Assembly: GCA_965230905.1 (NCBI GenBank)
Contig: OZ246396.1
Span: 1,140,001-1,172,000, forward strand
Reading direction: 5' to 3'
Length of the DNA: 32,000 nt
Source of the DNA: Candidatus Saccharimonadota bacterium
Lineage (GTDB): Bacteria > Patescibacteriota > Gracilibacteria > UBA1369 > 2-02-FULL-48-14
In this document: piece by piece, positions 8,899 through 17,317 of the stretch
Position numbering within the stretch: the first letter of the stretch is position 1
How the letters are laid out: every line of letters begins with the position of its first letter
Made by a program: the position numbers and the translations under genes
Notes under the pieces: model-generated
What the model was told of the DNA's origin: nothing
Databases searched by the model: none
The model's input: only the letters and a program-made list of their open reading frames with translations

Positions 8899-9546
8899 AT
8901 GCTAACATGTTTGCACTCTAATTCAGAGTTTGATCGTGAGTCCTTTGAGTTTCATTTGAGCGAAGAGGAAAGAAATGGTTTGGTGGAGCTGCGTCATTTG
9001 TCATGGACCGGCAAAGTTTTGAAGCCTGGTGAGAGATGGGGTGTTATTTGGAATAACACTGGGCCTACAAAGAAGGGGTTTCGCCCCCCAACTCTTACGG
9101 AAGATGCAAAACAAGTCATTGGACGATCATATGAGGTCCTAAAAAAGCATTTTGAGAAAAGAAGTCTTACAGTTGAAACTATCACTTTTGTTCAGGAACG
9201 AGCTCCCGATGGGACTGCAGAATCTCTTGCTCGAGTGAATGAATTTAATAAGGCGCTTAAAGATCCGTCGTATCCACATGTTGATGGGCAAGGCTATACT
9301 CAGTACGCTATCCTTGTACTGGATGAAGATGGAGGCGGTACAGAGTTTTTAGAAGGCTCTATTGCCATTTGGAATGTGGCAAGCATCAGGCGCGAAGAAA
9401 TTGCAGAGGCTCTGAATACGAATTCTGCAGATATGAAATTTTTAAATGCAGGACGATTAGGATTCTTCAATGGTGATACTATTCACAATAGAGGGAAATT
9501 TGTATCTGAACTTCCACGTGTTGCTATTATCGTTCAGTTCGTTTAG
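8899..9546 (+). CDS. putative Fe(II)/2-oxoglutarate-dependent oxygenase (prolyl-4-hydroxylase-like fold)
   Basis: Facial-triad-like spacing is present: H127-x-D129 (YPHVDG), a LVLDEDGGGTEF segment (compare YLND..GGET.F), distal H195 (GDTIHNRG) and R207. Residue numbers are my own count. A TATAAT sits at 8871-8876 upstream. Confidence 0.55.
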   Translation: MLTCLHSNSEFDRESFEFHLSEEERNGLVELRHLSWTGKVLKPGERWGVIWNNTGPTKKGFRPPTLTEDAKQVIGRSYEVLKKHFEKRSLTVETITFVQERAPDGTAESLARVNEFNKALKDPSYPHVDGQGYTQYAILVLDEDGGGTEFLEGSIAIWNVASIRREEIAEALNTNSADMKFLNAGRLGFFNGDTIHNRGKFVSELPRVAIIVQFV

Positions 9547-9585
9547 GGAAGATGGTTCACCGCTATTTCTTTCCAGGCAAGCTTA

Positions 9586-9594
9586 TGGTATAAT
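9586..9594 (+). promoter_or_regulatory. extended -10 promoter element (TGgTATAAT) upstream of the kinase-STAS-GT4 genes
   Basis: The sequence tatGGTATAATgg lies at 9586-9594, 22 nt before the ATG at 9617. Confidence 0.4.
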
Positions 9595-9616
9595 GGTTTG
9601 AAGTAATTTGACTGAA

Positions 9617-10213
9617 ATGGATCCAACGCCAAATCAACTCGAACAGACTCCGGAACAGGCTCAAGCTGAGCTGTCTCCCGTCCCAGCGAATCTCATCCCT
9701 TTGGATGAGCGTCCTACCGAAATCACTATTACTATTCCGACCCAGGCGTATTTTATGTCGGGAATTCGGGATTTTGTGGTGAATTTAACCAAGAATTTGA
9801 CCGGATTTTCCAGCCAATGGGCTTTCCGATTTCAAGCGGTGGTGGATGAACTGTGTAATAATGCCATTGAACATGGAAGTGCCGCCGGTGAACGCATCAC
9901 GGTGACCCTCATCAGCACTAAAGGTAAATCCCTGGAAGTGTGGGTGTCAGATACGGGAACCGGAAAAGAAAAGATGAATGCCTCTCAGCTCACTGCGCTG
10001 TTCCAGGAACGACGTCAGGTTATGACGGCTCAATACCTTGGATTCCGCGGACGTGGATTGCCTAAAATCATTGGAGAATGGACGGACGAGATCGTATTTG
10101 AAGACGTTCCAACAGGTGGACTCAAAGTAAAAGTAAAAAAATATTTACGAAAGGAAGAGGACACGGTATTGTCAACAGCGCAAAAAGATCCCACCCATAT
10201 TGTATTAAAGTAA
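9617..10213 (+). CDS. anti-sigma-factor-type serine kinase (RsbW/SpoIIAB-like HATPase_c)
   Basis: It has an N-box (VVDELCNNAIEHG), a G1 box (WVSDTGTG) and a G2-like box (GFRGRGLPKI). I prefer the ATG at 9617; the track uses a TTG at 9608. Confidence 0.8.
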   Translation: MDPTPNQLEQTPEQAQAELSPVPANLIPLDERPTEITITIPTQAYFMSGIRDFVVNLTKNLTGFSSQWAFRFQAVVDELCNNAIEHGSAAGERITVTLISTKGKSLEVWVSDTGTGKEKMNASQLTALFQERRQVMTAQYLGFRGRGLPKIIGEWTDEIVFEDVPTGGLKVKVKKYLRKEEDTVLSTAQKDPTHIVLK

Positions 10214-10220
10214 AAAACTT

Positions 10221-10592
10221 ATGACGCCAATCCAGATTACTATTGAAGATGTGAGTGGAGCTCCAGCCGGAAAGGTGGTGAAGCTTGTGCATATTGCGGG
10301 TCAACTCGACGAAAGCAATGTGGATGAACAAGCCAAGACCATTTATCAGCTGATTGAAGCGAATCCTGCCGGACTCAGCATCATCTTTGATGTGATGGGA
10401 CTGGAATACATGAATAGTAAGTCCATTGGTTATTTGACCGATTGGTACAGCAAAATTTCTGGGAACGGAGGAAAGGTGGTTTTGGCTTCCCCTCGCGAAA
10501 ACATTCTCGATATTCTCCAAGTGGTGGGTCTGACCCAGCTGGTGAATGCGTATCCTTCTCTTGACGAAGCAAAAGCGGCTGTGCTTTCTTGA
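10221..10592 (+). CDS. STAS-domain anti-sigma-factor antagonist (SpoIIAA/RsbV-like)
   Basis: The protein is 123 aa. DVMGLEYMNSKSIGYL aligns with the D-S*-x-G phospho-serine segment of SpoIIAA/RsbV. The start lies 7 nt after the kinase stop. Confidence 0.85.
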   Translation: MTPIQITIEDVSGAPAGKVVKLVHIAGQLDESNVDEQAKTIYQLIEANPAGLSIIFDVMGLEYMNSKSIGYLTDWYSKISGNGGKVVLASPRENILDILQVVGLTQLVNAYPSLDEAKAAVLS

Positions 10593-10599
10593 GGGCACG

Positions 10600-11721
10600 A
10601 TGCTCGATAAGTTAAAAATTGCGATTGTCTGTGACTGGCTCACCGTTTTTGCCGGTGCCGAACGCGTGGTCTACGAGATGCATCAGCTTTTTCCGAACGC
10701 GGTGATTTATACCTCGCTCTATAATAAGAAAGCTTTGCCGGCTTTTAAAAAGGCGGAGGTGCGGGAGTCGGCGCTGCGGTATTTGCCCTTTGCACGGAAA
10801 TTCCACCGGCTCTTTTTACCTTGGATGCCGCTGGCCTTTGAACGCATGGATTTGAGCGAGTTTGATCTGGTGATTTCGTCCAGTCATTCGGCGGCGAAGG
10901 GAATCATTACTCGGCCGGAAACTCTGCATGTGTGCTACTGCCACTCGCCGATGCGCTATGTGTGGGATCAGTCGCATCAATATCAGGATCAATTCAAGGC
11001 GTTCTCGTTGCTGCGGCCGTTTTACCAGCCCATTTTGCATAAAATCCGCATGTGGGACCGAGTGGCGGCGGACCGAGTGGATGAGTTTATTACGAATTCG
11101 GCTTATATTAAGGATCGTGTTAAAAAATATTACAAGCGTGAGAGCACCGTGATCCATCCACCGGTGGATTTACATACTTTTTCGGTGGGCAGGGATCATG
11201 GCGACGCGTATTTGGCGGTGGGACGACTGATTCCGTACAAACGTTTTGATTTGATTGTGAAAGCGGCGGTGAAGATGGGTTTTCCGCTGCAAGTAGTGGG
11301 AGATGGACCGGAGCTGAAGAAATTGAAGCGAATGGCGAAGGGGGCGAACGTGGAATTTTTAGGAAAGATTTCGGATGAGGCTTTGCGCGCTGCGTATCAA
11401 AATGCCAAGGCGCTGATTTTTCCTCAGCAAGAAGATTTTGGAATCGTGCCGCTGGAAGCCATGGCCTGTGGGACGCCGGTGCTTGCGTTTGGCAAAGGTG
11501 GCGCTTTAGAAACCGTGAGCGATGGCGTGTCTGGTTTGTTTTTTGAAGAACAAACGGTGGAATCCTTGATTGCGGCGATTCGAAAGTTCGAGAAAAAACA
11601 CTGGGATGCAGAAAAAGTGGCGGACAGCGTTTCCCAATTTGGTGCGGCGCGTTTCCGCAGTGAGCTACGGCACTTTTTGGAGAAGGCTTGGCGCGAACAT
11701 GAAAAAACTAAAGGTGCTTGA
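10600..11721 (+). CDS. glycosyltransferase, GT4 family
   Basis: The N-terminus MLDKLKIAIVCDWLTVFAGAERVV is typical, and the C-terminal PQQEDFGIVPLEAMACGTPVLAF carries an E-x7-E motif. The start was moved from 10546 to the ATG at 10600, which is preceded by GAGGG and lies 7 nt after the STAS stop. Confidence 0.85.
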   Translation: MLDKLKIAIVCDWLTVFAGAERVVYEMHQLFPNAVIYTSLYNKKALPAFKKAEVRESALRYLPFARKFHRLFLPWMPLAFERMDLSEFDLVISSSHSAAKGIITRPETLHVCYCHSPMRYVWDQSHQYQDQFKAFSLLRPFYQPILHKIRMWDRVAADRVDEFITNSAYIKDRVKKYYKRESTVIHPPVDLHTFSVGRDHGDAYLAVGRLIPYKRFDLIVKAAVKMGFPLQVVGDGPELKKLKRMAKGANVEFLGKISDEALRAAYQNAKALIFPQQEDFGIVPLEAMACGTPVLAFGKGGALETVSDGVSGLFFEEQTVESLIAAIRKFEKKHWDAEKVADSVSQFGAARFRSELRHFLEKAWREHEKTKGA

Positions 11722-11932
11722 TGAGGTCTTCTACGGAAATTTCAGCTTGGCGTAGAATTCCTGCCAAAGTGCCTTTTTTAAGAGCTTTATTGTGGATGGG
11801 AACAACAATTTGCCTATTTCGATCTTCATTAACCAGCACCAAGTGGCTTCCTTTTTGTCTTTGTTCGATAAAGCCGAGTTTCTTCAAAACTTTTACGAGT
11901 TCTTTTGCTTTCAGGATCGGAAGTTTAGGCAT
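11708..11932 (-). CDS. hicA: type II toxin HicA (mRNA interferase)
   Basis: The 74-aa protein contains KELVKVLKKLGF...QKGSHLVL...PIHNKALKKGTLAGILRQAEIS, which matches the HicA/YcfA pattern. Confidence 0.85.
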   Translation of the reverse strand: MPKLPILKAKELVKVLKKLGFIEQRQKGSHLVLVNEDRNRQIVVPIHNKALKKGTLAGILRQAEISVEDLIKHL

Positions 11933-12197
11933 GCAGTGCTCGAGAGGAATCAGTTTTTGTAACTACAATATTCATTCGCAAAACCTTACTGGAGCTTCTC
12001 ACTGGGATGGGAATGCCGCGTTCTTCTAAGACCTCCAAGTATAGCTCAATGGCTTCTTGGATATTTCCTTCAGCTTCCTCAAAAGTATCTCCTTCACTAA
12101 TACAACCAGGCAGGTCAGGTACTTCGGCAGTGAATCCGCCCTCTTCTTGTGGAGTAAAAATGACTTCAAAGTGATATTCGTTGATTACTTTTTTCAT
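11925..12197 (-). CDS. hicB: type II antitoxin HicB (short form)
   Basis: The 90-aa protein contains YHFEVIFTPQEEGGFTAEVPDLPGCISEGDTFEEAEGNIQEAIELYLEVL, the HicB/UPF0150 signature. It overlaps hicA by 8 nt. No obvious C-terminal RHH/HTH domain is present. Confidence 0.85.
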   Translation of the reverse strand: MKKVINEYHFEVIFTPQEEGGFTAEVPDLPGCISEGDTFEEAEGNIQEAIELYLEVLEERGIPIPVRSSSKVLRMNIVVTKTDSSRALHA

Positions 12198-12203
12198 GTA
12201 GAG

Positions 12204-12209
12204 ATTATA
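12204..12209 (-). promoter_or_regulatory. -10 box TATAAT lying 6 nt upstream of the hicB ATG (possible leaderless start)
   Basis: The minus strand reads GGCT-TATAAT-CTCTAC-ATG. It shares the 9-mer TTATAATCT with the ribBA upstream region. Confidence 0.35.
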
Positions 12210-12224
12210 AGCCTACTTTTGGAT

Positions 12225-13856
12225 TCAATCAATTGCCTGTTCTCGAATGGCGTATTTCTGTGGAATTGGAGAAGACATTTCTTTATGGGTGTCAGAGCTC
12301 TGTCGGAGAGTCGTTTCCCAAGGAAAAATAAAATTTTGATCTCTTTCTTCAAAACGGATACGCCAATGTTTGTTGGGCAAGGGAAGTTTTTTCCGCTGAA
12401 GTAATTCCAACTCTTTAGCCTGAATATTAAAAGGGAGTCCGGTCTTTTCACAGAGAAAAACCTTGCCCTTTAGATCTTTATAATCAAGCCCTGTACTCAT
12501 TTTAGAACCTGAATATACCAAAGCGGGGTCATGCTTGCTTTCTGAAGATTTATCCATCCACTCGTAGCCCAGTTCGTCAGCCAGGTTTTTATTTACTTCA
12601 AAGTATTCATTAGCCATGGAATTATTCAAAGCATAGGGACTACAAAAAGGTGGAAAAAACTGACCCCATTCTCCACGGGTCTTCATGTCTGAGATAATTT
12701 CAGCTACTTTCTTTTCATATGCTTCTTTGGTGTACTGCTTGTTTAAGATACAATACTTTCTACGTTTTAAACCTATGCAGCCAAAACATTCTTCTGAGCC
12801 TGGGCAGCTGTCACAATAGGTGAGGAATCGGCAATTATTCCAGCAGTCAAAACACATGCGAAGATAGTAAGCGCCGTAGCCACAACTCATGCTGTTGTAG
12901 CAGAGCTCGCCGGGGTCACCCCACAGGTCAAAGTCTAAACAGTCATTGCAGTGACGAAGACTCGTTCCATTGATACAGTCTTTACTGTATTCAACGATGT
13001 AAGAATTTAAACAATTCTGTGAAAAACTTATGTCGTTGCCCGTACAGTTTTCTGAACCGATAATGTTGGCGTATTTGTGGATGTATCCGACCTTCAAATT
13101 CTCGAGTTGTTTATAACACGCCTCTATGGATTCATGTGTGAGGAATTCATATTTCTTAATTTCTCGTTCGTAATCTTCTTTTGAATACTGTTTGTTTAAG
13201 ATGCAATACTCTTTACCAATCAACCCTACGCACAAGAAGCAGTTTCTACATCGTCTACAGTCATATAAAAAACGACTGTCGGAGCACGCTATACAATAAG
13301 CGCTAAAATCTAAGTTGTAACATGTTCTACAGCTCGTGATTTCGTGACATAAATTACATTCGTGAGCAATGCTCGCATTCATGGTGGACTGAGATCGTTC
13401 AAGATTGATGCTATAGAAACAGTCTTCGTCACTACCAGAGGCAAAAATCATGTGACAGTCTTTGCAGTGATTCACACAATTCACATATGGAGAGTTTGCA
13501 ATTGTACTATCACAAGCCACGCTCATGCGTGGTACTTGTAGTTGAAGCCTGCGAAATTGAACGAAAAAGGATTCTTCTGGATTGTATTCTGCTTCAGGTA
13601 CTTCAAAGTCTTGGGACCACCATAAGTCGTGTTTAAAAACTTTGAACGGAGACTTGGGTGGAAACTGACTCATAATGGTGTCTCCTGAAAGGTCGCACTT
13701 TCTGAAAAATACATTGATCTCGTTACGGAAGGAATAATGGAGAAAACGAATTTGTTTCGCCGTTAAGCCGTGTGGGGGTAAATCAAATTTTTTAAGTAAA
13801 TCTAAATATTCAGGTGAGTGAACTGGTTTTTCGGTGAAATCGATTGTTAGTCTCAT
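12225..13856 (-). CDS. uncharacterised cysteine-rich protein with an internal duplication
   Basis: The protein is 543 aa from the ATG at 13856. The track start at 13973 would overlap the divergent gene by 94 nt. I count ~35 Cys, many as CxxC (CKDC, CNLC, CRTC, CIAC, CRRCRNC, CNDC, CFDC, CDSC, CFGC). Two blocks each end in GL(I/K)..(E/K)YCILNKQY(S/T)KE.YE. The conserved-looking RKCDLSGDTIMSQFPPKSPFKVFKHDLWW lies near the N-terminus. Confidence 0.7.
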   Translation of the reverse strand: MRLTIDFTEKPVHSPEYLDLLKKFDLPPHGLTAKQIRFLHYSFRNEINVFFRKCDLSGDTIMSQFPPKSPFKVFKHDLWWSQDFEVPEAEYNPEESFFVQFRRLQLQVPRMSVACDSTIANSPYVNCVNHCKDCHMIFASGSDEDCFYSINLERSQSTMNASIAHECNLCHEITSCRTCYNLDFSAYCIACSDSRFLYDCRRCRNCFLCVGLIGKEYCILNKQYSKEDYEREIKKYEFLTHESIEACYKQLENLKVGYIHKYANIIGSENCTGNDISFSQNCLNSYIVEYSKDCINGTSLRHCNDCLDFDLWGDPGELCYNSMSCGYGAYYLRMCFDCWNNCRFLTYCDSCPGSEECFGCIGLKRRKYCILNKQYTKEAYEKKVAEIISDMKTRGEWGQFFPPFCSPYALNNSMANEYFEVNKNLADELGYEWMDKSSESKHDPALVYSGSKMSTGLDYKDLKGKVFLCEKTGLPFNIQAKELELLQRKKLPLPNKHWRIRFEERDQNFIFPWETTLRQSSDTHKEMSSPIPQKYAIREQAID

Positions 13857-13879
13857 ATCGCTTATGGTAACTTGCGACC

Positions 13880-14440
13880 ATGAAATTTCGCAAACTTTAT
13901 CTTTGGATTCTGCTCGCAGTATTTGTGGTTTCTGCGGTGATTTCGTATCTTTATTGGAAGGACTTCGAGCCACGGAATAAGGTTTTGGTTTTTGTGACAG
14001 TGGGAATCGATCAAACGGAGCGTCCGGATGAGACGTCTTCGTATGAATTGCAACGTGCGTCCGAGCATTTTTCCGATGTAATCTTGGGGTGGACGCTGGA
14101 GCCGAGCTTTAGACAGGACTTTTTGAAAGAAGCGGGGGCGGATTTTACTGGGCAAAGGCAAGAAAAACAGAATTTGCTCTTTGAAATCACGGATGCAGAG
14201 GAAAATATTAGTGAGGGTGATGTATCGGCGGGAGAGTCTTTCTTGAAAGTTTTGAATGCGCAATTGGCAGAGTACGAGGCGGCGACGCATCAAGGTTATG
14301 TGCTGGCGGTTCAGAATTTATCTTATGAGCTTGGACAGAAGTCACCTTTGCCTATGGTGGGCGACGTTTTGCTTGCACTGGTGCTCGTTGGGGTTCTTTT
14401 GCTAGCCTACGAATATGCTCAGACTCGCCGTCGATCTTAG
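13880..14440 (+). CDS. bitopic membrane protein, possibly a Wzz/polysaccharide co-polymerase-like chain-length factor
   Basis: The protein is 186 aa, with an N-terminal TM (LYLWILLAVFVVSAVISYLY), a C-terminal TM (VGDVLLALVLVGVLLLAY) and a ~130-aa soluble loop between them. It lies immediately upstream of, and overlapping, a glycosyltransferase. The family call is weak. Confidence 0.55.
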   Translation: MKFRKLYLWILLAVFVVSAVISYLYWKDFEPRNKVLVFVTVGIDQTERPDETSSYELQRASEHFSDVILGWTLEPSFRQDFLKEAGADFTGQRQEKQNLLFEITDAEENISEGDVSAGESFLKVLNAQLAEYEAATHQGYVLAVQNLSYELGQKSPLPMVGDVLLALVLVGVLLLAYEYAQTRRRS

Positions 14441-15467
14441 GCCGCTGCTCGAACCGTTTGAAAGCGGAGTGACTCAATACACCAAAGCTTTGGTGAGGGA
14501 GTTTTTGATGCGCACGGATGTGGAGTTGGATCTATATTACCAAGCGCGCACGCGCTGTGAACGCATTCATGAACTTTTTCCGGAGGTGAGGCATATTGCG
14601 CTTTCTAATACTGCTTTTCATGTGCGCTCGCTGCTGGGTTTCCCGCGTTTGCCGGCAGTGTATTTTCCGGTGAAACCGGGGCTTATTTGGATTCCGGACC
14701 GGCGGCCTTTTTATAAAAGCGAGATTCCGTTGGTGATGACCATTCACGATAAAGTGCCGGAGCTGTATTCGTCGACTTTGTCTTTAAAAAGCCGTTTGTG
14801 GCATTTAATTTTTCCTTTGCGGCGTTTGCTCAAACTGTGCAGCGGTGTGGTGGTGCCAAGCTTCACGGTGGGAGCGGCGCTAAAAACTAAACTGCTTAAA
14901 GAAATCACCTATGAAGGCGTGCATTTGGAAAAATCCGTGGCTCCCGCAGCGTCTAAAAAACTGCTCAAAATGCCCTTTTTTTTGATGATCAGCCCCTCTG
15001 ATCCACGCAAACGTTTGGATTGGTTTTTTAAGATGGCGGAGCGATTTCCCAAAGTTAATTTTGTCGTGATTGGACTTAAAGCAACGGACTCACGTTTTGC
15101 AAAATTGAAACTCAAAAAATCTGACAATGTGCATTTGGTGGGTGAGGTGAGTGAGGGCGAAAAAGCTTGGTATTTGAAGCATGCCCGAGCTTTGGTGGCC
15201 ATTAGTAAGTACGAAGGTTTTGATTTGCCGGTGCTCGAGGCGGTGCGCGCCAAATGCCCGGTGATTCTGAGTGACATTCCCGTTCACAATGAGCTCTACA
15301 AAAACGCCTGCATGGTGAAAAATCTCAAGGAATTGGAAGGGGCCATGTACCGAGCCCTCAACGGGAAAATTGAAGTGCCTGAAGCCCGAGGGAACTATGT
15401 GTGGGAGAAAGCGGCGGAGCGGACTTTATTTTTCTTTCTCCGCGTACTCCTTCACAAAGATCGATAG
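14415..15467 (+). CDS. glycosyltransferase, GT1/GT4-type (GT-B fold)
   Basis: The N-terminus MLRLAVDLRPLLEPFESGVTQY is typical of the family. The C-terminal ISKYEGFDLPVLEAVRAKCPVILSDIP carries an E-x7-E motif. Confidence 0.8.
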   Translation: MLRLAVDLRPLLEPFESGVTQYTKALVREFLMRTDVELDLYYQARTRCERIHELFPEVRHIALSNTAFHVRSLLGFPRLPAVYFPVKPGLIWIPDRRPFYKSEIPLVMTIHDKVPELYSSTLSLKSRLWHLIFPLRRLLKLCSGVVVPSFTVGAALKTKLLKEITYEGVHLEKSVAPAASKKLLKMPFFLMISPSDPRKRLDWFFKMAERFPKVNFVVIGLKATDSRFAKLKLKKSDNVHLVGEVSEGEKAWYLKHARALVAISKYEGFDLPVLEAVRAKCPVILSDIPVHNELYKNACMVKNLKELEGAMYRALNGKIEVPEARGNYVWEKAAERTLFFFLRVLLHKDR

Positions 15468-16640
15468 GGTCGTTGCTACGGGAATAGCCATGATCATGCC
15501 CACCACCCCGAGTTTTTCGAGGCCGATCATCATCGCGAGGATGATAATAATTGGGCTGAGGCCCACGGCTTTTCGCATAACCAGCGGAACCAAAATGTTC
15601 CCTTCAATTTGTTGGAGGAAGATGATGAGACCCAGCATCCACACGGCGAGCCAAGGCGATTCGTTGAAGGCAACGAGCACTGCCGGGATACCAGCCGCAA
15701 TGGGTCCTACCACAGGCAAAAGCTCTGCAATACCCGTCATCATGGCCAGTGTGAGCGCGTTGTCTACACCCAGAATCAAAAGCCCTGTGAGGCTCAAAGT
15801 GAACATCAAACACATCAGAATAACTTGGCCACGTAGCCAGTACCCGATTTTTTGTTGAATGGTTTCAATTTTGTTCATGATGTAGGCGCCGTGCTTGGAA
15901 GGGAAAAGCGAAACGAAGAAATCGTTTGCGTCCTTTCCATTCACCACCAAGAAGAAAGTCAAAATCAGCACGAGCACAAAGTTGAAAATGCCGTTGAATA
16001 TGGCTTTGATCACTCCCAAGGTGTCTCCTGCGAGGGTTTGTAGTTCACCCGCAAAACCTTCCAAGGTGGTCTTGAGCTCAGTGATCAGTGCTTCTTTATC
16101 CACATGACTGAGGAAGTCTTGAATCACCGGCTCGAGTCTTTCACCAAAAGGAATGTTCACTTCACCCGCGGCCATTTTTTCTAGCAGACTGGTCAAACTC
16201 TTGGCGAGCTCCAACAGCTGCGTGGCCACCAAAGGTATGAGCTGCGACACAAAGAATCCAAAAATCATCAGCATGATGAGAAAAATACCTATTACGCTTA
16301 TGGCCCGTGGAATCTTGTACCTCCGCAAAGAATTCACGGTGGGCGTCAACGCGGCTGAGAAAAGGATGGCGATGAAAAATATGAGCAGAATTCGAGCGAT
16401 GTCTCCCAGAAAATGACTGAGTGCAATGAGCAAAAGGACCACAGCCGTTGCTTTGGCTGTGCTGATGGGTGAAAAATGAACGATGACTTCCTCTTTCTTC
16501 ACCGGTTTGCTGTCTCGGTCCGGAATTTCTATACGCAGATTTTCTTTACGTTGTTCTTTGAGTTGCTGCAAAGTTTCTCGCAAATGCTTGATATTCTCGG
16601 AAGTGCTGTGGATGAATTTATTGATGCGTTCGTTTTTCAT
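15426..16640 (-). CDS. AI-2E family transporter (PerM/YhhT, UPF0118)
   Basis: The protein is 404 aa and polytopic. Its conserved C-terminal half contains GIAELLPVVGPIAAGIPAVLVAF...FLQQIEGNILVPLVMRKAVGLSP. Confidence 0.85.
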   Translation of the reverse strand: MKNERINKFIHSTSENIKHLRETLQQLKEQRKENLRIEIPDRDSKPVKKEEVIVHFSPISTAKATAVVLLLIALSHFLGDIARILLIFFIAILFSAALTPTVNSLRRYKIPRAISVIGIFLIMLMIFGFFVSQLIPLVATQLLELAKSLTSLLEKMAAGEVNIPFGERLEPVIQDFLSHVDKEALITELKTTLEGFAGELQTLAGDTLGVIKAIFNGIFNFVLVLILTFFLVVNGKDANDFFVSLFPSKHGAYIMNKIETIQQKIGYWLRGQVILMCLMFTLSLTGLLILGVDNALTLAMMTGIAELLPVVGPIAAGIPAVLVAFNESPWLAVWMLGLIIFLQQIEGNILVPLVMRKAVGLSPIIIILAMMIGLEKLGVVGMIMAIPVATTLSIFVKEYAEKEK

Positions 16641-16641
16641 A

Positions 16642-17130
16642 TCAACTGGTGAGAGCGAGTAAAATGATGTTTACGATGATCCAGGAGGAAAGTACGAGTA
16701 CAAAACCTCCAATGGCGTGGGTGATGATGGTTCTCCCTTTCTCTTTATCGTCCGTGAGTCCGCCTGCAATGTAATAGTACGCGCCCACCATGATCATCAG
16801 CACTAGAATCAGTCCGGCTAAGTCGATCACAAACTCAATCGCAAAAATAACGTAGTAGGGAACCATCCAAAACTGAATTTCGCCGGTTTTTAAGGCGCAG
16901 CCTAAAATTGCCTCGATATCTGCTTTTTCTCCTACATCGATCATTTCCTTAAGTTTGTCTTCATCTTGAAAGATTCCTTCCCAAAAGGCCCAGTTGCTTT
17001 GATCATTAGGATCACAGTTGAACCATTCGTCACTGGTTTCGGGAAGAATTGTGGTTGCAGCAAAAGCGTTTGGGGCAAAACAATAAAATGCGGCAAGTCC
17101 CGTGAATAGTATTTTTTTGGCGAGGTTCAT
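16642..17130 (-). CDS. secreted two-TM small protein, type IV secretion pilin-like (TrbC/VirB2-like, CPR 'T4SS_pilin' architecture)
   Basis: It has a signal peptide (MNLAKKILFTGLAAFYCFAPNAFA) and then two C-terminal TM helices joined by a G..D.EKG loop (LILVLMIMVGAYYYIAGGLTDDKEKGRTIITHAIGGFVLVLSSWIIVNIIL). The stop lies 1 nt before the AI-2E start. Confidence 0.5.
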   Translation of the reverse strand: MNLAKKILFTGLAAFYCFAPNAFAATTILPETSDEWFNCDPNDQSNWAFWEGIFQDEDKLKEMIDVGEKADIEAILGCALKTGEIQFWMVPYYVIFAIEFVIDLAGLILVLMIMVGAYYYIAGGLTDDKEKGRTIITHAIGGFVLVLSSWIIVNIILLALTS

Positions 17131-17174
17131 AAATGGCGATTGGCTTTATTAACTCAGAATAGAGGCGCGTCGGC

Positions 17175-17317
17175 AAGTAAAATTTCTTCCCCTGTATCTT
17201 CTCTTCTGAATTTCTTCACCTGGGAGCGAAAGAACTCGGATCATGATCCTCGTCCTTTCTTCCTTTTAATTTACGGTTCATAAATTCAGAAGAGAACCAT
17301 GGAAAGAAATTTTACTT
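17175..17317. repeat. 143-bp three-tier imperfect palindrome (ERIC/MITE-like element or long structured RNA)
   Basis: The outer arms, 17175-17188 and 17304-17317, are 14 bp and perfect. The inner arms, 17199-17213 and 17282-17296, are 15 bp and perfect. The central perfect palindrome GGATCATGATCC lies at 17238-17249, flanked by GAAAG.AC/GT.CTTTC. All three tiers are co-centred within ~4 nt. Confidence 0.75.

Follow-up and report, generated by a model that had tools for sequence, protein, structure and literature searches.

The stretch of DNA analysed here, referred to as the window, comprises 32,000 nucleotides (positions 1,140,001-1,172,000) of the genome of a Candidatus Saccharimonadota bacterium, a single contig of 1,306,353 bp that is 99.45% complete. 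A gene on its minus strand (12225-13856 in window coordinates) encodes a cysteine-rich protein of 543 amino acids (aa) and about 63 kDa with 11 overlapping CxxC motifs. An original prediction, made from the sequence alone, had described a protein of about 35 cysteines built from an internal duplication. All of the CxxC pairs that it listed are present (CKDC131, CNLC167, CRTC176, CIAC188, CRRC200/CRNC203/CFLC206, CNDC303, CFDC335, CDSC348 and CFGC357) and the cysteines number exactly 35. The protein was found to be a divergent, stand-alone member of a very large unnamed family of Patescibacteria, whose genes normally occur as tandem arrays beside that of a soluble VirD4-like motor ATPase. The gene and its parts are listed below.

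12225-13856, minus strand: gene for the cysteine-rich protein, 543 codons and a stop codon; a divergent orphan of the 'W subfamily' within the Patescibacteria cysteine-ladder family
13572-13856, minus strand: N-terminal module, about residues 1-95; degenerate treble-clef/zinc-ribbon pair in which the core RNE..F.RKCDLSG..I.SQFP is retained
13149-13505, minus strand: cysteine block 1, residues 118-236; ladder of about 12 residues per rung, ending in CRRCRNCFLC...EYCILNKQYSKEDYE
13186-13210, no strand assigned: 25-nt DNA repeat, copy 1, encoding YCILNKQY of block 1
13059-13148, minus strand: helical linker between the blocks, residues 237-266; helices at 226-236 and 241-257 according to DSSP on the predicted model
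12696-13058, minus strand: cysteine block 2, residues 267-387; all-beta, ending in CDSC..CFGC...KYCILNKQYTKEAYE
12733-12757, no strand assigned: 25-nt DNA repeat, copy 2, encoding YCILNKQY of block 2
12552-12674, minus strand: conserved post-block segment EWGQFFPP..SPYALNNSMANEYF...G.EW, about residues 395-435
12234-12461, minus strand: C-terminal module, residues 466-541; homologous to the N-terminal module, with C469 retained and the last Cys4 ribbon of relatives gone

The gene, its family and its architecture

The start codon was assigned to the ATG at 13856 because all orthologues are 543 aa long with the N-terminus MRL, and because this ATG lies within the insertion described below, 8 nt inside its boundary. 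A GTG at 13973 would give a longer protein and was rejected, as it falls outside the insertion, in flanking DNA common to genomes without the gene. Comparison with the orthologue of a same-genus genome, G005 (94% aa identity), gave a synonymous divergence (dS) of 0.41 and a nonsynonymous divergence (dN) of 0.032, with dN/dS of 0.08. The gene is real, functional and under strong purifying selection. A lack of homologues or disrupted frames in relatives had been named by the original prediction as grounds for its rejection, and the gene proved to be conserved and intact in those relatives. Since no stretch of the protein is hydrophobic (the 19-residue Kyte-Doolittle maximum is 0.86) and its N-terminus does not resemble a signal sequence, it is predicted to be cytoplasmic.

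The suggestion that the protein belongs to no characterised family held in every search. There was no match to it in Pfam, NCBIfam or PADLOC, among PDB sequences, or in phage and plasmid collections, and the PHROGs scan returned only a marginal match (phrog_15341, E 0.004). When a profile of 115 family sequences was compared with PDB sequences, only marginal matches to LIM fingers were found (E 0.02-0.1), on a ribbon that is absent from the window's protein. Foldseek searches with the predicted structure, a check proposed with the prediction, likewise returned nothing at E<=0.001 against PDB and BFVD.

A word-seeded search identified 3,899 homologues among its candidates, and a profile search of 1.84 billion representatives at 50% identity recovered 6,054 clusters at E<=1e-3, 2,568 of them at E<=1e-30. 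Nearly all of these clusters are 540-600 aa in length and match the profile from end to end. Where the organisms are named they belong to Peregrinibacteria/Peribacteria, Gracilibacteria, Abawacabacteria, Nomurabacteria, Liptonbacteria or the 'Patescibacteria group'; a few short contigs with other taxon labels may be binning noise. The family is essentially specific to Patescibacteria. One full-length member was also observed on a 3.26-Mb contig of a metagenome-assembled genome of Bdellovibrionota (locus L065), a predatory lineage outside Patescibacteria, with no ATPase like a type IV coupling protein (T4CP) within 10 kb.

Members outside the W subfamily match the window's protein over 84-97% of its length with about 31-40% identity (E 1e-80 to 1e-104), and for the paralogues in the same genome the E values are 1e-51 to 1e-83. 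Besides this full-length homology, the protein contains both of the LNKQY-closed blocks and the EWGxFFP segment. Thousands of family members carry the database labels 'hypothetical protein' or 'zinc-ribbon domain containing protein', and in the literature searched neither the family itself nor its core fold, function or ATPase partner was found described. Only the zinc-ribbon ends tie the window's copy to anything described.

The family architecture consists, in order, of an N-terminal ribbon module, two cysteine-ladder blocks of about 120 residues each, the EWGxFFP segment and a C-terminal ribbon module. Both of the duplications claimed from the sequence were confirmed by profile comparison, using hhalign on sub-alignments taken from the 115-sequence family alignment. 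Block 1 (residues 118-236) matched block 2 (267-387) with a probability of 99.9% and E 1.1e-36, and the terminal modules (residues 3-77 against 468-541), which share an 'F.I...E...L.K..LP.P' pattern, matched each other with a probability of 99.7% and E 8.2e-26. Control comparisons of blocks with termini gave no match. Self-BLAST of the single sequence did not detect the duplication, and a comparison of profiles was required. At the DNA level the two copies of the 25-nt repeat (12733-12757 and 13186-13210) are indeed 23/25 identical and lie 453 nt apart. Each copy encodes (E/K)YCILNKQY, the motif at the close of its block, where (Y)C(I)LNKQYSKEEYE forms a strand and a helix.

Autocorrelation of the profile within the blocks is strongest at a lag of 12 residues, with a further peak at lag 24 in block 1, and for this reason each block is regarded as a ladder of rungs of about 12 residues, each with an x-(N/D)-C motif. 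The 115-sequence alignment shows no variation at N221 and N372 and hardly any at K373, Q374, Y375, E396, G398, F401 and P402; F400, N411, A415, G430 and W433 of the post-block segment are also nearly invariant. The segment RKCDLSGDTIMSQFPPKSPFKVF..WW, singled out in the original prediction as a conserved core, was found to be among the best-conserved parts of the family.

In relatives, the terminal modules match zf_Tbcl_2 (PF23477) in 16 of 28 sequences and zf_Tbcl (PF13451) in eight, both of which are models of a 'probable treble clef' zinc finger. Neither model matches the window's protein even at E<=1, and the two zinc-ligating CxxC pairs of the zf_Tbcl finger are absent from it. Ligand columns of the N-terminal finger are occupied by cysteine in 72-91% of members outside the W subfamily and in none within it; in the window's protein these positions read T4, F7, T32 and Q35. 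For the columns of the last C-terminal ribbon (positions 520, 523 and 537 of the W protein, plus one that is gapped in it), the corresponding frequencies are 92-98% elsewhere and 8% in the W subfamily, where P0013 is the only one of the 12 members to keep this ribbon. Eight ligand cysteines, equivalent to two terminal Cys4 sites, have been lost in the W subfamily. Because these ligands are gone from both the N-terminal finger and the last C-terminal ribbon, the related termini of the window's protein are degenerate zinc ribbons.

The cysteines of the core present a different distribution. Eleven positions (C134, C170, C179, C191, C200, C203, C206, C209, C348, C360 and C369) are 86-99% conserved throughout the family, with C200, C203, C206 and C209 at 92-99%, and seven others (C115, C127, C131, C303, C319, C342 and C405) are particular to the W subfamily. 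Such conservation, together with the treble-clef fingers of relatives, makes metal binding plausible, in the form of either zinc or iron-sulfur (Fe-S) clusters.

An AlphaFold2 model built with the 115-sequence alignment is a single compact body with a mean predicted local distance difference test score (pLDDT) of 87.8 and a predicted template modelling score (pTM) of 0.90. The ligand-less N-terminal module (pLDDT 86-98) and the C-terminal module (84-94) are both predicted well, and the weakest part is the first half of block 1 (60-73). In the model, block 2 consists of regularly spaced beta strands and each block is followed by a long helix. The top PDB matches returned by Foldseek were left-handed beta-helix enzymes (GlmU, LpxD and gamma-carbonic anhydrase) at E 0.03-0.1 and template modelling (TM) scores of 0.08-0.14, and local matches to small phage 'zinc-ribbon domain' proteins were also seen. 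Because the Foldseek and PDB profile searches gave only non-significant or marginal matches, no solved relative of the core can be recognised. The term 'beta-solenoid or hairpin-stack with a cysteine ladder' is used as a description and not as a classification.

Paralogue arrays and the VirD4-like ATPase

A total of 12 family members were found in the host genome, accounting for about 1.5% of its DNA. Nine of these are arranged head to tail at 251,039-268,109, interrupted only by two TrmB-type regulators and a NYN-domain gene on the opposite strand. Directly after the last copy, at 268,359-270,602, lies a gene for a 747-aa ATPase with matches to TrwB_AAD_bind (6.6e-9), T4SS-DNA_transf (1.3e-7) and TraG-D_C, in which Walker A (GKSGTGKS) and Walker B (FYFYVDEF) are intact. 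This ATPase also matches a phage family of unknown function, phrog_5156 (E 1.7e-66). No transmembrane segment is predicted in it, unlike the two other T4CP-like paralogues of the genome (at about 1,123 kb and 1,230 kb), which have one at the N-terminus. The genome's only VirB4-like gene is about 780 kb away from the array ATPase.

The window's copy is solitary; location in an array is typical of the family, not universal. Another solitary paralogue, of about 505 aa, was observed on the minus strand of the host contig (C1:~1105286-1106800). Its reading frame stops right after the first C-terminal ribbon (...RKRNELIPFPY*), so that the last zinc ribbon is absent by truncation and not by substitution, and equivalent copies that stop at the same place occur in same-genus genomes.

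The arrangement was examined in 77 family loci on contigs from one genome per species, where an ATPase was sought within 10 kb. Most of the loci are tandem arrays, with up to nine copies in 21 kb, and several hold a single family copy. An array-type ATPase was found in 18 of the 77, usually on the same strand and right after the last copy; this figure is a lower bound because many arrays extend past the fetched flank.

Co-occurrence was followed in 40 related genomes, 32 with the family and eight in which it was not found. Orthologues of the array-type ATPase were counted when they were full length with at least 51% identity and included the N-terminal 200 residues. By this definition, 31 of the 32 family-bearing genomes have an orthologue, whereas the eight in which the family was not found all lack one and contain only more distant ATPase paralogues that bear transmembrane segments (<=48% identity over about residues 180-725). 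Contrasts of this kind are also seen within a genus (G007 against G017, and G021 against G012 and G023). The ATPase gene abuts the array in G001, G003, G004, G008, G010, G012, G014, G017, G018, G022, G023, G029 and G039. In G014 (C1:216760-218993) the orthologue falls into two overlapping frames and contains an in-frame TGA, for which a frameshift, a pseudogene or a misassembly could account; eight family copies remain in that genome.

A 2025 survey counted 5,713 t4cp genes of the VirD4 type in 2,918 Patescibacteria genomes, and only 148 of these genes lie near virB4 (PMC12102498). The same survey raised the possible exaptation of t4cp for other functions and does not mention the family arrays.

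The accessory islet and neighbouring genes

The window's copy occupies an islet that was delimited by aligning positions 9000-17200 of the window to five same-genus genomes.

11692-13864 (approximate), no strand assigned: accessory islet of hicA, hicB and the cysteine-rich gene, absent from four same-genus genomes
11925-12197 (hicB) and 11708-11932 (hicA), minus strand: toxin-antitoxin pair directly downstream of the cysteine-rich gene; Pfam HicA_toxin 3e-20 and HicB_lk_antitox 9e-13

Flanks of the islet lie only 16-18 bp apart in G003 and G006, which represent the empty site, and the site is likewise empty in G001 and G004. The fifth genome, G005, carries the cysteine-rich gene at the same site without hicBA, the stop codon abutting the glycosyltransferase gene. 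The window's copy is thus an accessory single-gene insertion that is present in some genomes of the genus only, and hicBA, since it is absent from the otherwise collinear G005 locus, forms a minimal nested cassette of its own, about 0.5 kb in size (11700-12224) and placed immediately behind that gene's stop codon. The proximity of a toxin-antitoxin pair, pointed out in the original prediction, is correct as far as hicB and hicA adjoin the gene; a functional tie to the pair is not supported, as the G005 orthologue does without it. Just upstream of hicBA, and overlapping the 3' end of the cysteine-rich gene, is a promoter-like site (TTGATT-17-TATAAT, 10/12 match, 12232-12204).

On the left, the junction of the islet (11692-11721) falls within the last ~10 codons of a GT4 glycosyltransferase gene (10546-11721), which overlaps the end of hicA by 14 nt. 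Since the junction lies inside these codons, the glycosyltransferase has a different C-terminal tail depending on whether the islet is present. To the right, the site is flanked by a plus-strand open reading frame (ORF) of 186 aa (13880-14440), conserved in all the same-genus genomes, with hydrophobic segments at its N- and C-termini and no Pfam match.

Orthologues of the W type (>55% identity) are rare among relatives, with G005 the only one of 39 to have one and all other matches being at most 38% identical. A maximum-likelihood tree places the W copy in a fully supported clade (100/100) with metagenomic relatives of 60-85% identity. The stem of this clade is long, at 1.15 substitutions per site, its tips are short, and the 11 other paralogues of the host genome fall outside it. 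We sought a neighbour conserved across the W-type loci and found none, as contexts differ in every locus: beside pnp/rpsO in L115, after an orphan 254-aa ORF in L009 and isolated in L010. P0013 belongs to a three-copy array located 4 kb from a T4CP-like ATPase in a genome of 40% GC. The 254-aa and 217-aa ORFs that flank the P0007 orthologue have no homologue in the host genome. In base composition, the cysteine-rich gene (GC 0.400; GC at third codon positions, GC3, 0.406) is below eight of the nine array copies (GC 0.45-0.48, GC3 0.52-0.57); the ninth, A6, has GC 0.413 and GC3 0.466.

Two further gene pairs of the window were observed away from the islet. At 9608-10592, an anti-sigma-type kinase of the HATPase_c_2 family (201 aa) and a STAS-domain protein (123 aa) adjoin each other in what looks like an RsbW/RsbV-style partner switch in a reduced genome. 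The minus-strand gene at 16642-17130, whose 162-aa product carries a T4SS_pilin (PF18895) hairpin at its C-terminus, adjoins a gene for an AI-2E family transporter (15426-16640).

Proposed role, alternatives and known systems

With moderate confidence, we read the window's protein as a cytoplasmic and probably zinc-stabilised repeat scaffold that works with the VirD4-like ATPase. Judging from cysteine conservation, the core cysteines most likely coordinate multiple ions of structural zinc, which would rigidify a beta-rich scaffold, and the W subfamily would have dispensed with the two terminal Cys4 zinc sites. Family members would act with the soluble ATPase of VirD4/TrwB type (FtsK-HerA superfamily) that is encoded at the downstream end of the array, a partnership suggested by synteny and co-occurrence. 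They could be clients or specificity adaptors of this ATPase, in which case diversified paralogues would supply alternative specificities. The window's copy, which was probably acquired laterally, would add one variant to the 11 resident paralogues and plug into the resident system. As for hicBA, it appears to be an independent, later insertion and an incidental neighbour.

Several observations weigh against this interpretation. One genome, G019, contains two family copies and no array-type ATPase, and the co-occurrence is given as counts without a P value because related genomes are not independent samples. The window's copy lies about 880 kb from the array ATPase, so that its own link to the enzyme is borrowed from relatives. 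A distant t4cp homologue proved non-essential when another Patescibacterium was studied by transposon sequencing (Tn-seq; PMC12102498). With regard to the fold, the beta-helix resemblance seen by Foldseek is not significant (E >= 0.03, TM ~0.1), and the solenoid description consequently rests on periodicity and on the DSSP assignment of the model. Composition is weak evidence of lateral transfer because by GC3 the gene ranks no lower than the 14th percentile among the genes of the genome, and an argument from composition was not relied on.

An alternative that uses the same ATPase is that the family proteins are effectors, which the coupling ATPase hands to a type IV secretion system (T4SS) for delivery into a host cell, the window's copy being one variant. 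Adjacency to and co-occurrence with a T4CP-type ATPase would fit such cargo, and so would the diversified paralogue arrays, which are typical of effector repertoires, the Arg-rich C-terminal modules, and the VirB4-like and T4SS pilin-like genes of the host genome, one of the latter in the window (16642-17130). We nevertheless consider secretion unlikely. The array ATPase lacks the membrane anchor of the two other T4CP paralogues and its gene is some 780 kb distant from the virB4-like gene; the scarcity of t4cp genes near virB4 in Patescibacteria (148 of 5,713) has itself been linked to possible exaptation (PMC12102498). A rigid fold with multiple zinc ions would, in addition, need to be unfolded for translocation.

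That the protein is a stand-alone nucleic-acid-binding or conflict factor (defence or addiction), independent of the ATPase and mobile together with toxin-antitoxin modules, seems rather improbable to us: it gave no PADLOC match and no match in phage or plasmid collections, the closest orthologous locus has no hicBA, W-type loci share no conserved neighbour, and the ribbons of the W subfamily no longer have their zinc ligands, although presence or absence does vary within the genus, the distribution is patchy, hicBA adjoins here and an HTH_3/HI1420-type pair lies within a few kb in L010, and the terminal modules derive from Arg-rich zinc ribbons. A role as an Fe-S-cluster protein in redox reactions or electron transfer is improbable to a further degree. 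Patescibacteria are generally anaerobes, and the best-conserved motif, the CxxCxxCxxC of C200-C209 (92-99%), resembles ferredoxin-type spacing; the CxxCxxCxxxCP form of a 4Fe-4S ferredoxin is however absent, the homologous position of block 2 is spaced differently (CxxCx5CxxC), no Fe-S family of Pfam matches, no conserved redox partner is nearby, and the terminal modules of relatives are classed as zinc fingers. Least probable, to the point of being nearly discounted, is export to the cell surface as a disulfide-bonded protein, in the manner of the large cysteine-rich extracellular proteins for which the related Peregrinibacteria/Peribacteria genomes are known (PMC4736985). The window's protein has neither a signal peptide nor a transmembrane segment, its terminal modules are zinc ribbons of intracellular type, and its ~550 aa compare with ~1,655 aa in the published set.

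If the preferred reading of a scaffold acting with the ATPase is carried further, the family and its membrane-less ATPase might tentatively be seen as an undescribed, Patescibacteria-wide cytoplasmic machine, with the diversified paralogues serving as interchangeable specificity modules, or as cargo, when DNA or protein is handled at the expense of ATP in an epibiotic lifestyle, and with single paralogues exchanged laterally to change specificity. Thousands of 'orphan' t4cp genes would then gain a defined partner set. This extension is possible, and we hold it with much less confidence than the reading from which it starts.

The near-perfect co-occurrence and synteny of the family with one clade of soluble VirD4-like ATPases point to a concrete partner for the many coupling-protein genes that are 'orphan' in Patescibacteria and whose role was left open by the 2025 survey (PMC12102498). 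A reduced genome of 1.3 Mb devotes ~1.5% of its DNA to one unnamed family, whose 270-residue core has no Pfam model and no structural relative and which is represented by thousands of clusters in public data. New in the window's copy are the absence of the terminal zinc ligands, the solitary position and the mobility. The terminal zinc sites are dispensable, being lost here in a gene that nonetheless has dN/dS of 0.08, and single members of the family would pass from one genome to another in insertions of one gene; for these two reasons the window's copy is a natural minimal construct for biochemistry.

Among known systems, the fingers of zf_Tbcl (PF13451), zf_Tbcl_2 (PF23477) and TIGR04272 (CxxC-x17-CxxC) are homologous to the terminal modules, in which the F.I...E..F..K..LP.P pattern is retained. 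They differ in that neither zf_Tbcl model matches the window's protein, where other residues stand in place of each of the four ligand cysteines of the N-terminal finger; the Pfam families are themselves uncharacterised and cover less than 15% of the protein. LIM-domain zinc fingers (CRP1, CRP2 and muscle LIM protein) are matched marginally by the last C-terminal ribbon of the family, which is lost in the window's protein. The blocks resemble cysteine-laddered and hexapeptide beta-helices in their period of about 12 residues with a cysteine in every rung and, in the model, in their short, regularly spaced beta strands. The left-handed beta-helices (LpxA, GlmU and gamma-carbonic anhydrase) are set apart by non-significant Foldseek scores, by the lack of an [LIV]-G-x4 motif in the window's protein and by the period of its blocks, which is 12 and not 6 or 18 residues. 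The Tenebrio antifreeze protein also has 12-residue coils and is extracellular and disulfide-bonded, whereas the window's protein is predicted to be cytoplasmic.

The extracellular cysteine-rich proteins of Peribacteria have a mean length of 1,655 aa and, in most cases, a signal peptide (Anantharaman et al. 2016, PMC4736985). They resemble the present family in coming from the same broad lineage, in their high cysteine content and in their gene clusters; identity with them was ruled out by the size of ~550 aa and the absence of an export signal. Finally, the type IV coupling proteins (VirD4, TrwB and TraD) differ from the array ATPase in that the latter has no transmembrane anchor, lies far from virB4 and has no relaxase or conjugation genes nearby, and the window's copy, unlinked to the ATPase, would be a client of it only by analogy with its relatives. 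Common ground with these systems is that the family arrays end at, and occur together with, a TrwB/VirD4-like ATPase with its Walker A and B motifs intact.

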